From a virus, in UHGV virus genome UHGV-0189264: a DNA stretch of 18,141 bases, one strand, 5' to 3'. A program made the translations under genes and the position numbers. The notes below the pieces were generated by a model. The model did no database searches. It saw only the letters and a program-made list of their open reading frames with translations, and was not told the origin of the DNA. Of the stretch, positions 2,224 through 13,542 are shown piece after piece. Every line of letters starts with the position of its first letter. Positions within the stretch are counted from its first letter, which is position 1.

Positions 2224-2487
2224 TTATCCTGCTGTGCTTTCAACTGATGAGGGGAATAAAATCTTTTCATCAAATCCGGCATTCATATCATGGACAGCAA
2301 CACACCAATCCATCGACGAACGATTATCAAGAGCCTCCATGATTTCATCCATGCGGCGCAGGTCATACAGGTAAATGCTTTTATCGCCAATGGTGTAAAA
2401 ACCAATTTTTTTCGGTGATGGGCAGCGATCAAGAACGTCCTGTAATTCGTTCAACCATGCCCGTTCTTTTTTTGTTAAAGTTGCCAT
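2224..2487 (-). CDS. Hypothetical phage protein (87 aa, start at internal Met of the 101-aa ORF)
   Basis: Strong RBS AAGGAGAG 5 nt upstream of the ATG at 2487, which sits directly after the stop of the upstream gene. The longer ORF start at 2529 has no RBS. Confidence 0.55.
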   Translation of the reverse strand: MATLTKKERAWLNELQDVLDRCPSPKKIGFYTIGDKSIYLYDLRRMDEIMEALDNRSSMDWCVAVHDMNAGFDEKILFPSSVESTAG

Positions 2488-8528: not shown

Positions 8529-8690
8529 ATGACAAAACGTCGTAAGAAATACCAGGAAAAAGAAGAGATTCGACACCCTGATTCACCTGAGGGATTAGTG
8601 GTAGCCGCAGCAAATAACAGGGCGTTCGCAGAGCGCCTTGTTGGTGTTTACAGACTAGCCAAAGCAGGAGTGAAACATGGGCGTCGTTAA
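8529..8690 (+). CDS. Small basic ORF between cII and O (53 aa, [53 protein letters not shown])
   Basis: Not in the ORF track. RBS CAGGAG 6 nt upstream of the ATG at 8529; 3' end overlaps the O start. Confidence 0.35.
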   Translation: MTKRRKKYQEKEEIRHPDSPEGLVVAAANNRAFAERLVGVYRLAKAGVKHGRR

Positions 8691-9498
8691 GTTAGCTGAT
8701 TACAGGCCTCAACTGGAGGTCGTGGAGCATCGCGTGGCAGATACCGAAGATGGTTTCATGCGCGTTGCTAACGAGATTACCGACAGTCTGCTGATGGCTG
8801 ATTTAACCGTCCGGCAGATGAAGGTGATGCTCGCTATCATGCGCAAGACATACGGATTCAATAAGCCGATGGATCGACTCACAAACACGCAGATAGCAGC
8901 CATGACAGGTATTCATCACACTCATGTTTGCGCTGCCAAGCGCCAGCTTATTGAGCGTAAATTCCTCATTGCTGATGGCGTGAAAATCGGAGTGAACAAG
9001 GTGGTTTCTCAGTGGATTAGCCAGGACAGCTTAACATTAGCTAAAACAGCTAATAAAACATTAGCCAAGTCGGCTAATGGGTATAAGCCAAGTCAGCTAA
9101 ACACAAAAGACAATATACAAAAGACAATAAATACAAATACCCCCTTACCCCCTAGCGGGGGCGGCGATGGGCAGGTTAAACCTGAACGTCGCAAGGCAGA
9201 ACGAATCGACTACGAATCCTTCCTGAACGCCTACAACACCGAAGTCGGTGACAGACTTCCACACGCTGTTGCGGTCAACGAGAAACGAAAACGCCGCCTG
9301 AAGAAAATCATTCCGCAACTGAAAACGCCAAACGTGGACGGTTTCAGAGCGTATGTCAGGGCGTTTGTGCATCAGGCCAAGCCGTTTTACTTCGGAGACA
9401 ACGACACTGGCTGGACGGCAGATTTTGATTACCTGCTGAGGGAAGATTCGTTAACGGGAGTACGGGAAGGGAAGTTTGCAGACAGGGGGATTGCATGA
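8677..9498 (+). CDS. Replication initiator, lambda O / P22 gp18 family
   Basis: 273 aa; N-terminal region [38 protein letters not shown] resembles the lambda O N-terminal domain (ADLTKRQFKVLLAILRKTYGWNKPMDRITDSQL). Contains iterons internally; followed by a helicase gene with ATGA overlap. Confidence 0.8.
9016..9160. repeat. Replication origin: four 19-bp iterons, an AT-rich tract and a GC-rich palindrome inside the O-like gene
   Basis: Iterons ATTAGCCAGGACAGCTTAA (9016), ATTAGCTAAAACAGCTAAT (9036), ATTAGCCAAGTCGGCTAAT (9060), ATAAGCCAAGTCAGCTAAA (9083), then the A-rich tract ACACAAAAGACAATATACAAAAGACAATAAATACAAATAC and CCCCCTAGCGGGGG. This mirrors the ori-lambda layout. Confidence 0.65.
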
Positions 9499-10871
9499 GA
9501 CAGGATATCGAAGCGAGCGTTATCGGTGGCTTGCTGATTGGTGGATTAACACCAACCGCCAGCGACGTTCTGGCAACGCTGGAGCCGGAAGCGTTTTCAA
9601 TTCCGCTCTACCGGAAAGCCTTCGAGGTTATCCGCAAGCAGGCGAGAAACAGAAACCTAATCGACGCGCTGATGGTTGCCGAGGCGTGCGGAGAGGAGCA
9701 TTTCACGTCAATCCTGATGACCAGCAAAAACTGCCCGAGTGCCGCAAACCTGAAGGGATATGCCGGAATGGTCGCGGATAACTATCACCGCCGTCTGGTG
9801 CTGGAAATCATGGATGAAATGCGTGAACCAATTCAGAGCGGAACCATCGACGCATCGAGTCAGGCGATGGATGAGCTTGTAAAGCGTCTTTCAGCCATCA
9901 GAAAGCCCCGTGACGAGGTTAAACCGGTACGGTTAGGGGAAATCATCACCGACTACACTGACACGCTTGACAGGCGTCTGAGGAACGGAGAAGAGTCAGA
10001 TACCCTGAAGACCGGAATCGAAGAACTTGATGCCATCACCGGAGGGATGAACGCGGAAGACCTGGTGATAATCGCTGCTCGTCCTGGTATGGGGAAAACC
10101 GAACTGGCTCTGAAGATTGCCGAAGGCGTTGCAAGCCGCGTTATTCCTGGTTCTGACGTCCGGCGCGGGGTATTGATTTTCTCAATGGAAATGAGCGCAT
10201 TGCAGATTGCAGAGCGAAGCATCGCCAACGCCGGGAGGATGTCGGTTAGCGTGCTGCGAAATCCTGCATCGATGGATGACGAAGGCTGGGCGCGTGTTGC
10301 TAACGGCATGAGTCAGCTTGCAGATTTGGATGTATGGGTAGTCGATGCCTCGCGGTTATCGGTCGAAGAAATACGCTCAATCGCAGAACGGCACAAACAG
10401 GAAAATCCAAACCTGTCACTCATCATGGCGGATTATCTTGGCCTGATTGAGAAGCCGAAAGCAGACCGCAACGACCTCGCAATTGCTCACATCTCCGGAA
10501 GCCTGAAGGCGATGGCGAAAGACCTGAAAACGCCCGTTATCTCCCTGAGTCAGCTTTCGCGCGATGTTGAGAAGCGACCAAACAAACGCCCGACAAACGC
10601 AGATTTGCGTGATTCAGGAAGCATTGAACAGGACGCAGACTCAATCATCATGCTCTATCGGGAAGCTGTATATGACGAGAACAGTAGCGCCGCGCCATTT
10701 GCTGAAATCATTGTGACGAAAAACCGTTTTGGCTCACTTGGTACGGTTTACCAGCGGTTCTGCAACGGACACTTTGTTGCATGTGACCAGGATGAAGCCA
10801 GACAGATTTGCACAACATCAAATGCACCTGCTGCACGTGGCAGACGATATGCACAAGGGGCTGACGTATGA
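9495..10871 (+). CDS. Replicative DNA helicase, DnaB family (P22 gene 12-like)
   Basis: 458 aa; Walker A motif AARPGMGKT, and DnaB-like C-terminal RecA-fold motifs ([29 protein letters not shown]). Confidence 0.9.
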
Positions 10872-10948
10872 CCATCTACATCACTGAGCTTGTAACAGGC
10901 CTGCTGGTAATCGCAGGCCTTTTTATTTGGGGGAGAGGGAAGTCATGA
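10868..10948 (+). CDS. Hydrophobic micro-ORF (26 aa, [26 protein letters not shown])
   Basis: Not in the ORF track. ATGA overlap with the helicase stop at its start and with the ninB start at its end; predicted single transmembrane helix. Overlaps the tR2-like terminator, so it may be non-coding. Confidence 0.25.
10897..10929 (+). terminator. tR2-like intrinsic terminator between the helicase and the nin region
   Basis: Perfect 8-bp stem AGGCCTGC-TGGTAATC-GCAGGCCT followed by TTTTATTTG. Confidence 0.7.
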
Positions 10949-11385
10949 AAAAACTAACCTTTGAAATTCGATCTCCAGCACATCAGCAAAACGCTATTCA
11001 CGCGGTACAGCAAATTCTTCCAGACCCAACCAAACCAATCGTAGTAACCATTCAGGAGCGCAACCGCAGCTTAGACCAAAATCGGAAGCTTTGGGCTTGC
11101 CTTGGTGACGTTTCGCGTCAGGTTGAATGGCATGGTCGCTGGCTGGATGCAGAAAGCTGGAAGTGTGTGTTTACCGCAGCATTAAAGCAGCAGGACGTTG
11201 TTCCTAACCTTGCCGGGAATGGCTTTGTGGTAATAGGCCAGTCAACCAGCAGGATGCGTGTAAGCGAATTTGCGGAGCTATTAGAGCTTATACAGGCATT
11301 CGGTACAGAGCGTGGCGTTAAGTGGTCAGACGAAGCGCGACTGGCTCTGGAGTGGAAAGCGAGATGGGGAGACAGGGCTGCATGA
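10945..11385 (+). CDS. ninB: NinB (Orf-family recombination mediator)
   Basis: 146 aa starting [27 protein letters not shown]..., recognised as lambda NinB; RBS GAGGGAAG upstream. Confidence 0.85.
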   Translation: MKKLTFEIRSPAHQQNAIHAVQQILPDPTKPIVVTIQERNRSLDQNRKLWACLGDVSRQVEWHGRWLDAESWKCVFTAALKQQDVVPNLAGNGFVVIGQSTSRMRVSEFAELLELIQAFGTERGVKWSDEARLALEWKARWGDRAA

Positions 11386-12227
11386 TAAATGTCGTTAGTT
11401 TCTCCGGTGGCAGGACGTCAGCATATTTGCTCTGGCTAATGGAGCAAAAGCGACGGGCAGGTAAAGACGTGCATTACGTTTTCATGGATACAGGGGCAGA
11501 GCACCCTAAAACATATGAGTTCATCCGAAATATCGTCAGTAACTGGGAAATAGACTTACATTGCCTTCGTGTAATACCTAATCCAGAAATGGGGAAGGCC
11601 AGTAGTTATGAAGAGATAGGTGTCAATGATATTGGTCCAGATCTTATACCGTGGAAAAGGATGTTGAATAAATACGGACATCCATATATCGGCGGTGCGT
11701 TCTGTACCGACAGAATGAAGTCTGTTCCATTCACCAAATATTGTCAGGAAAAGTTTGGGAAAGGAAATTACATCACATGGCTTGGCATTCGCACAGATGA
11801 ACCAAACAGGATTAAAAGGGCTAATGGTTTTCGGTACCTGGCTGATATAAGCGATTTTGAAAAACAGGATGTGCTTGATTGGTGGAGTGAGCAGAAGTTT
11901 GATCTTGGCATACAGGAGCATCTTGGTAATTGTGTTTTCTGCATAAAAAAAAGTATGCAAAAGGTGGCGCTGGCAGCCATGGATGAGCCAGAACTTGCAG
12001 ATGCATTTATCAACATCCTTGATACAGAAATAAAAACAGGAAAGGAACCGGTTATGTATCGAGGGAATAATACACTTAAATCACTGATTGCCTTGTTTAG
12101 TGATATATCAAGAGATGAGTTAGCCTCAAGAATGACATCAATGCGACAGTATGATTCAGGTTCGTGTTCTGAATCATGTGAAGCATTTTCATGTCAGCTT
12201 GGATTTAATTTTGAGGATGTGGCATGA
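11382..12227 (+). CDS. NinC-like PAPS-reductase-family (PP-loop ATPase) protein
   Basis: 281 aa from the internal Met ([17 protein letters not shown]), with ATGA overlap to the ninB stop; PP-loop motif SFSGGRTS. Coding region is visibly more AT-rich than its neighbours. Confidence 0.75.
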
Positions 12228-12400
12228 GACGACAGCGACGAAGCATCACCGACATAATCTGTGAAAACTGCAAATACCTTCCAACGAAACGCTCCAGAAA
12301 TAAACGCAAGCCAATCCCAAAAGAATCTGACGTAAAAACCTTCAACTACACGGCTCACCTGTGGGATATCCGGTGGCTAAGACATCGTGCGAGGAAATGA
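12224..12400 (+). CDS. NinE-like small protein (58 aa, [58 protein letters not shown])
   Basis: Not in the ORF track; ATGA overlaps at both ends; basic, Cys-containing nin-region protein. Confidence 0.6.
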
Positions 12401-12762
12401 CAATGGATTATTCACAGTTAAGTGATTTTGAAATTAACGTGGCGGTATTCGAAGCCATTCATAACGGATCACCGGATTACAAAGAAGGTGAGAATGGCGA
12501 TATGGTGTTTGTCTCATTTGAGGGAGACATTGTAAACGGAGACGCAGTTGAAGTAGAAGTTGAGCGCGGTTCCTTTAACCCATGCGCAAACCCAGCAGAC
12601 GCATGGCCGATTATTGAAAAATACAGGATTAGCATTATCAATCTCGATGAAGACGAGTGGGGTGCACGCGGTGTGGCCTACTGTAAATCTAAGCGAGCTA
12701 TACATGAAAATCCCCTCCGCGCCGCCATGATTGTCTTTCTCATGATGCAGAGAATCCAATAA
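12397..12762 (+). CDS. NinX-like (DUF2591-like) protein
   Basis: 121 aa from the internal Met ([24 protein letters not shown]...); position in the nin operon. Confidence 0.55.
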
Positions 12763-12938
12763 TGCTTAGCCCATCCCAATCCATTCAATACCAGAAAGAA
12801 AGCGTCGAGCGAGCTTTAACGTGTGCTAACTGCGGTCAGAAGCTGCATGTACTGGAAGTTCACGTGTGTGAGCACTGTTGCGCAGAACTTATGAGTGATC
12901 CGAATAGCTCAATGTACGAGGAAGAAGATGATGGCTAA
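12762..12938 (+). CDS. ninF: NinF-like small Cys-rich protein
   Basis: 58 aa [58 protein letters not shown]; not in the ORF track. Confidence 0.7.
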
Positions 12939-13542
12939 ACCAGCGCGAAGACGATGTAAAAACGAAGAATGTCGGGAATGGTTTCACCCTGCATTCGCTA
13001 ATCAGTGGTGGTGCTCTCCAGAGTGTGGAACAAAGATAGCACTCGAACGACGAAGCAAAGAACGCGAAAAAGCGGAAAAAGCAGCAGAGAAGAAACGACG
13101 ACGAGAGGAGCAGAAACAGAAAGATAAACTTAAGATTCGAAAACTCGCCTTAAAGCCCCGCAGTTACTGGATTAAACAAGCCCAACAAGCCGTAAACGCC
13201 TTCATCAGAGAAAGAGACCGCGACTTACCATGTATCTCATGCGGAACGATCACGTCTGCTCAGTGGGATGCCGGACATTACCGGACAACTGCTGCGGCAC
13301 CTCAACTCCGATTTGATGAACGCAATATTCACAAGCAATGCGTGGTGTGCAACCAGCACAAAAGCGGAAATCTCGTTCCGTATCGCGTCGAACTGATTAG
13401 CCGTATCGGGCAGGAAGCAGTAGACGAAATCGAATCAAACCATAACCGCCATCGCTGGACTGTCGAAGAGTGCAAGGCGATCAAGGCAGAGTACCAACAG
13501 AAACTCAAAGACCTGCGAAATAGCAGAAGTGAGGCCGCATGA
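12928..13542 (+). CDS. ninG: NinG (Rap-like recombination-promoting nuclease)
   Basis: [63 protein letters not shown]...; Cys-rich N-terminus and basic region as in lambda NinG. Confidence 0.9.

Follow-up and report, generated by a model that had tools for sequence, protein, structure and literature searches.

A hydrophobic ORF of 26 codons lies on the plus strand at 10868..10948 of the window, by which we mean the whole 18,141-nt stretch of virus genome UHGV-0189264 that was analysed, and the same DNA carries a hairpin followed by a T-run. This arrangement raises the question of what the segment is: a gene whose product matters, an ORF for which the act of translation matters and the peptide does not, or a terminator whose open frame is incidental.

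The ORF, the embedded terminator and their neighbours

The ORF is interlinked with its neighbours at both ends. Its ATG (10868-10870) overlaps the TGA of the helicase gene (10869-10871), and its TGA (10946-10948) overlaps the ninB ATG (10945-10947). An earlier note on this DNA had described these two ATGA overlaps, and its coordinates match the ORF list and the sequence. The interlinked chain goes on downstream, where the ninB stop and the start of the next gene, encoding a NinC-like protein with a PAPS-reductase domain (Pfam), again overlap as ATGA (11382-11385). No ren gene is present between the helicase gene and ninB in the window, just as in P22, because the replication module is of the P22 type. 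The absence of ren, to which the earlier note had drawn attention, therefore signifies only the type of module; in lambda, where the counterpart ORF starts at 40567, its ATG overlaps the stop codon of ren. Upstream of the helicase gene, the O/gene-18-like ORF at 8677..9498 contains a probable replication origin, consisting of four 18-nt iterons (ATTAGCCAAGTCGGCTAA-like, with a spacing of 20-24 nt) at 9016-9130, with an adjoining 14-nt tandem pair; a minus-strand terminator-like match at 9079-9059 is just one palindromic iteron.

Table 1 Features of the ninA locus, with coordinates in the window
Feature	Coordinates	Strand	Basis or description
DnaB-type replicative helicase, P22 gene 12 homologue, 458 aa	9495..10871	+	Pfam DnaB_C 9.5e-78, DnaB N-terminal domain, P22 annotation
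SD-like AAGGGG, within the helicase 3′ end, 7 nt upstream of the ninA ATG	10855..10860	+	anti-SD duplex -6.8 kcal/mol
ninA, 26 codons	10868..10948	+	phrog_5907 E=1.4e-19; annotation of P22 and relatives
ninA 5′ third, codons 1-10	10868..10896	+	sole part of ninA without an overlapping non-coding role; substitution test
ninA 5′ third, also the 25-26-nt spacer from upstream stop to hairpin	10868..10896	+	
tR2 hairpin AGGCCTGC-TGGTAATC-GCAGGCCT, ninA codons 10-18	10897..10920	+	8-bp stem, 6 G-C pairs, 8-nt loop
U-tract TTTTTATTT	10920..10928	+	sequence
ninB RBS, purine-rich GGGGGAGAGGGAAG, also ninA codons 21-25 (WGRGK)	10929..10942	+	sequence and spacing to ATG 10945
ninB, Orf-family recombination mediator	10945..11385	+	Pfam NinB 1.1e-54

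The hairpin, which is followed by TTTTATTT, is the best terminator-like site within 9000..13000. It folds alone at -15.1 kcal/mol; the fold z-score of the 101-nt segment is unremarkable (-0.74). In an alignment with lambda 40567-40650, the window is base for base lambda tR2 from the hairpin through the ninB start, including the loop, the T-tract and the ninB RBS. Hence, what had been described as an 8-bp hairpin and T-run in the position of lambda tR2 is the sequence of tR2 itself, in the same slot of the rightward early operon.

Lambda tR2 stops unmodified RNA polymerase, and N-modified polymerase reads through it (PMC4824070; bioRxiv 10.64898/2026.05.29.728758). Given the sequence identity, termination at the tR2 of the window would likewise be N-sensitive. 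Lambda tR2 terminates at U7/U8, and is weakened even by stem-preserving changes at the GC bubble edge (bioRxiv 10.64898/2026.05.29.728758). Mapped by homology, U7/U8 correspond to 10926/10927, and termination would be expected there, in ninA codon 20. RNAs terminated at tR2 would therefore carry ninA without a stop codon, as non-stop mRNA.

The same pairing of ORF and terminator has been described in other phages. Megablast of 10780..11020 matched 410 phage records. For P22, record X78401 places ninA at 2346..2426 with 'terminator tR2' inside it at 2375..2406, and BK000583 places ninA at 34673..34753 with a lambda-like terminator at 34703..34728; NinA is also annotated in relatives, among them Sf101, UAB_Phi20, Bp96115 and PhiR12_2. 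Residues 1-26 of the peptide align to phrog_5907 (function unknown), a profile of 27 positions; no Pfam family matched the peptide, and no Rfam family matched the segment. Twenty-five of the 26 residues are identical to ORFs translated from the P22 and lambda sequences. P22 and lambda ninA share with the window the position after the replication genes, the ATGA overlaps and the embedded terminator, and differ from it only allelically; the window shares residue V9 with P22 and the C-terminal S with lambda. A DnaB-type helicase gene precedes the ORF in the window and in P22, whereas lambda has ren there. The name ninA also appears among the non-essential nin genes of lambda and P22, in publications that stress the ATGA overlaps of the nin region (PMC8022706, PMC3349717). 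Since the P22 records, the lambda ORF, phrog_5907 and the nin literature all give ninA, the ORF with its embedded terminator is already known as ninA/tR2, and its observation here is a rediscovery. In lambda the entire nin region is dispensable, as the nin5 deletion shows (PMC3349717). The function of the peptide itself, if it has one, is non-essential.

A cassette with a conserved start, frame and stop

We compared ~460 related copies from IMG/VR and metagenomes, anchored on the hairpin or on the 5′ part. BLAST alignments with phages that have different neighbours run from exactly 10868 to 10937-10947, delimiting a cassette of ~80 bp between mosaic junctions whose variable 3′ boundary is the ninB RBS region (10929..10942). 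Upstream, the cassette is joined at ATGA to seven dissimilar gene ends; downstream, it is joined to at least nine different genes via 7-8 junction sequences. The ninA ATG lies in an ATGA overlap in 220/229 hairpin-bearing copies, and the ninA stop is always -5 to +6 nt from the start of the next gene, across the at least nine downstream genes. Coupling on both sides, as claimed for this locus in the earlier note, is thus general. The frame is likewise preserved in relatives that keep the hairpin: it is intact and 24-31 codons long in 217 of the 220 copies that keep the start. Departures from this pattern consist of a W21stop in one copy, a frameshift in two, and an in-frame fusion with the following gene in two. 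The C-terminal tails of ninA change with each downstream module. Two loci from IMG/VR or metagenomes carry an in-frame fusion of ninA with a downstream hydrophobic protein (VADWQIPIIILAG…), an ORF of 100 aa in which two segments are hydrophobic.

An open frame of 26 codons is by itself not beyond chance, with a rough estimate of ~0.3 in random sequence, a point in favour of the segment being simply tR2, a spacer and the ninB RBS. Chance does not explain why start, SD, frame and stop placement are conserved over hundreds of copies in differing contexts; an ATG that is invariant in 220 copies and a stop that abuts the next start in 7-8 junction forms both argue against an incidental frame.

The 81-bp cassette is present in 1982 of 5426 complete E. 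coli genomes (37%), at 2883 places, all with ≥90% identity; there are up to five copies per genome, and 20 of the places are on plasmids. The allele of the window is 100% identical to that of E. coli strain 7/2 (NZ_CP023820.1). PGAP (RefSeq) usually annotates the flanking genes only and leaves the ninA ORF uncalled, as do many phage records, which fits a frame without meaning as well.

A second allele of the cassette keeps the 5′ 30 nt of ninA and has a different 10-bp hairpin, GGGGCTATT-TACAC-AGTAGCCC, followed by T6ATT, with frame and distance unchanged. It was found in the first ~110 nt after the helicase/ren-type stop at L158, L159, L162, L167, L169, L181, L193 and L166; in the last of these, the stem changes are compensatory and a shift of 1 nt takes the frame into an ORF of 109 aa. 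The terminator sequence has been replaced while the position of the ORF has been kept, and the architecture of a terminator inside an ORF is therefore conserved. Retention of the 10 N-terminal codons together with a different terminator is not what we would expect if only the act of translation mattered.

HK022-type phages have a third architecture, in which an insertion of ~690 bp lies between ninA codon 11 and the tR2 hairpin. The insertion encodes a homing-endonuclease-like protein of 203 aa (HNH_3 + AP2), and was found at 241-903 of L126 (HK022), at L010, L087 and L116, in phage PA28 (H99) and in E. coli strain 116 (H129). The endonuclease TAA ends 1 nt 5′ of an intact hairpin, and the 5′ part of ninA is fused to 23 new codons, again hydrophobic, to give a 34-aa ORF. 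We considered whether this ORF represents a hydrophobic peptide that persists without the hairpin; this was ruled out by the intact hairpin downstream of the insertion. Given that the insertion splits ninA and the hairpin stays, phages can do without intact ninA and it is the hairpin that they keep, as would be predicted if the terminator were all that counts. The conserved cassette seems to serve as a homing target.

The cassette and ninB are separable. Our NinB-anchored scan of species-representative genomes returned mostly lambda contamination, and is informative only for L141, L145, L146 and L149. At L145 and L146, which are Enterobacter and Pseudocitrobacter prophages (NinB 81% identity), there is no cassette upstream of ninB (1300-1530), and the cassette is therefore not obligatorily tied to ninB. 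In the same scan, near-identical lambda ninB was found on contigs of ~48.4 kb or on tiny low-coverage contigs (L127-L140, L143-L144, L147-L148 and L150-L154), in assemblies labelled Pseudomonas, Oceanobacillus, Bradyrhizobium, Shewanella, Nocardioides, Veillonella and others; lambda ninB in such species-representative genomes is almost certainly lambda DNA contamination.

Evidence for translation of ninA

An SD-like motif was found in the -20 to -4 window in 7/7 upstream contexts, with anti-SD energies of -5.9 to -11.6 kcal/mol, whereas only ~8% of background positions in the same upstream genes were at or below -6 kcal/mol. Seven independent occurrences against this background are difficult to reconcile with a frame that is not meaningfully translated.

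We then examined substitutions in the 26 nt that separate the ATG from the hairpin, using loci that were retrieved independently and leaving out the set retrieved with the 5′-anchored pattern, which allows third-position variation only. Eight of 12 substitutions were synonymous, as against 3.2 expected when the transition/transversion mix is considered (p=0.0013), a result that rests on 12 changes among closely related, recombining sequences. None of the 12 fell at a second codon position, and the four replacements were I>L, I>V, I>M and T>A. Read in either of the other frames, the same 26 nt gave no significant result, and third-position variation confined to the ninA frame argues against an incidental ORF. 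This pattern suggests that codons 1-10 are under purifying selection at the amino-acid level, with the protein-level signal confined to the N-terminal decapeptide. It also weighs against the reading in which the peptide is a mere by-product of translation, since that reading predicts no amino-acid constraint in codons 2-10, where the synonymous excess and the conservative replacements were found.

From the hairpin onward, by contrast, only 6/22 substitutions were synonymous, which is approximately the chance level. The coding signal is missing here because the codons double as terminator and ninB RBS. Consistent with this double use, the stem varies recurrently only by C>T, at cassette positions 33 and 51; these changes keep a G.U pair and are synonymous (GGC>GGT), and both codes are therefore satisfied. 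The tail varies freely (W21>L/C/stop, G>E/V/W and R>G/K). In the loop, L13Q is a common variant (13 copies). Protein-level constraint may therefore be absent from most of the peptide. As read from the sequence, the hydrophobic core mostly reflects the terminator: it follows from the GGCCTGC/GCAGGCC stem and the T-run in the ninA frame, a point in favour of an incidental frame. The caution voiced in the earlier note, that the GC-rich stem itself encodes the hydrophobic core, was justified.

Published reporter assays also bear on translation. The NinA initiation site on a lambda tR2 fragment was described as 'not weak' (Li et al. 2016, PMC4824070). An active NinA start reduced expression of an upstream reporter to about half, which was attributed to non-stop decay, and mutation of the RBS or AUG restored the reporter (PMC4824070); such an effect would not be expected of a frame that is open by accident. 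Translation of NinA lowered tR2 efficiency by only ~10%, in a construct that was non-native and uncoupled (PMC4824070). In the same study (PMC4824070), tR2 was ~90% efficient when the upstream stop was 28 bp before it, and <10% efficient when a ribosome could come within 5 nt; the gap of 25-26 nt between the upstream stop and the hairpin in the window is near this 28-bp spacing. We conclude, from the conservation of the SD, the synonymous excess and the published effect of RBS and AUG mutations on the reporter, that ninA is probably translated.

The product would be a small hydrophobic peptide, which may be inserted in the membrane. The best 19-residue Kyte-Doolittle window scores 2.03 but includes E7, and the uncharged hydrophobic run of 14 residues (L8-W21) is short for a membrane span.

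Readings of the cassette and comparison with known systems

The reading that we favour, and consider reasonably probable, is that the lambdoid ninA-tR2 cassette is one stretch of RNA with two readers, serving as a terminator for polymerase and as a 26-codon gene for ribosomes. Polymerase without a phage N-type antiterminator would stop at ~10926/10927, past the replication genes and ahead of the nin genes and the late activator, whereas N-modified polymerase would read through tR2. Ribosomes would initiate at 10868, using the SD in the helicase 3′ end and the ATGA stop/start overlap, and would translate across the hairpin to end on the TGA that overlaps the ninB ATG. On this reading ninA would be one link in the ATGA-interlinked chain of nin genes, possibly acting as a relay, and there would therefore be no untranslated gap from the replication genes to ninB. 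The residues would be determined in three ways: purifying selection would keep the first 10, the terminator would dictate residues 11-20, and the ninB RBS would fix residues 21-26. Several of the observations above sit less comfortably with this reading. Most of the peptide is perhaps unconstrained, given the chance-level proportion of synonymous changes from the hairpin on; HK022-type phages keep the hairpin with ninA split; two ninB homologues have no cassette upstream, and lambda can dispense with the whole nin region; and ninB has a strong RBS of its own, so that a relay may be unnecessary.

A stronger claim for the peptide is that NinA is a functional micro-protein kept by selection although a terminator and an RBS lock two thirds of its codons, in which the decapeptide MTIYITEL(I/V)T would be a functional or targeting element and the helix encoded by the terminator would be a membrane anchor. 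We regard this as possible but tentative. In a more speculative variant, the non-stop ninA message made at tR2 would serve as a programmed substrate of tmRNA, so that N-independent termination would be coupled to decay of the mRNA of the replication genes. The tmRNA dependence of lambda-immP22 hybrids has been mapped to the P22 c1 gene. According to a 2010 paper, the molecular basis of that dependence had yet to be understood (PMC2862035). We found no evidence of a link between this dependence and ninA.

Rather unlikely, in our judgement, is the reading in which only the act of translation matters, through coupling, protection from Rho or RNase, or a fixed spacing between stop and hairpin, with the peptide a quickly degraded by-product. 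This would account for the conservation of start, stop and SD placement in all contexts, and for residues 11-26 being dictated by the terminator and the ninB RBS and varying freely where those permit; it would also accommodate C-terminal tails that differ with each downstream module, an ORF that is non-essential, and the tolerance of in-frame fusion to the next gene at two loci. However, the good RBS of ninB may leave little for a relay to do, and the constraint on the first codons is not explained.

Given the comparative and reporter evidence described above, we think it doubtful that the segment is only a terminator, spacer and RBS with an untranslated open frame. The earlier note had offered a choice between a small peptide and a terminator whose sequence merely happens to be open. 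The terminator half of that choice was right, whereas its exclusiveness was not, as the segment is both at once: we conclude that a real terminator shares its DNA with a micro-ORF that is probably translated and that joins up the chain of nin genes.

We consider it very unlikely that translation of ninA tunes tR2 or the fate of the transcript, either by a ribosome that re-initiates at ATGA, trails the polymerase and masks the hairpin in the manner of an attenuator, or by ribosomes that stall on non-stop ninA mRNA and bring about tmRNA rescue and decay of the upstream message. Such regulation would suit a terminator that lies wholly within an ORF and whose U7/U8 ends fall in codon 20, and it would suit the halved reporter and the loss of tR2 efficiency caused by a nearby ribosome; against it, the effect of ninA translation on tR2 was slight, albeit in a construct without the native ATGA coupling, there are no regulatory codon runs, and N-type antitermination already accounts for read-through.

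Three further models make predictions about the sequence itself. When the 3′ arm of the hairpin was blocked, the 5′ arm found no stable partner: the MFE changed from -37.3 to -24.2 kcal/mol with no competing helix, and hence no alternative antiterminator fold. A scan for the sigma-70 consensus found no promoter-like site near 10868 and none on the minus strand of 9000-13000. The lack of an antiterminator fold, of an Rfam family and of an independent or antisense promoter argues against attenuator, toxin-antitoxin and moron models. We rejected a type I toxin-antitoxin system for want of an Rfam match or, in the sigma-70 consensus scan, an antisense promoter. The 'membrane-active moron' of the earlier note was likewise rejected, as the cassette has no promoter of its own near 10868 and is a conserved backbone junction, found in more than a third of complete E. 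coli genomes, rather than a sporadic insertion.

As a discovery there is little new here, since publications on P22 and lambda, as well as GenBank, have carried the ORF, its name, the embedded tR2 and the ATGA chain for decades, and the NinA start site was already used in 2016 to study a terminator inside a coding region (PMC4824070). What the locus offers is a clean natural triple overlapping code, of peptide, terminator and downstream RBS, in a very widespread E. coli prophage segment. The comparative evidence, with an SD in each upstream context, a stop at every next start and a synonymous excess only in the unconstrained codons, argues for annotating ninA as a real gene.

Set beside known systems, ninA resembles the leader-peptide attenuators of pyrBI, trp and his in that a short ORF contains or precedes an intrinsic terminator and the position of the ribosome could affect the hairpin. 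It differs from them in having neither an antiterminator structure nor regulatory codon runs, and in that read-through is brought about by a protein antiterminator. Its predicted product is similar in size to type I toxins (Ibs, ShoB, TisB and Hok/Ldr; 19-50 aa) and, like them, would form one hydrophobic helix with a basic terminus; unlike these, ninA has no evident antisense promoter or RNA, and its hydrophobicity is largely forced by the terminator. A further likeness is to the interlinked chain of lambda ninR (Kroger and Hobom 1982, as cited in PMC8022706 and PMC4824070), with ATGA links before and after ninA and between ninB and the next gene. Within this chain, no link but ninA contains a strong intrinsic terminator, and no other has 3′ codons that form the RBS of the next gene.
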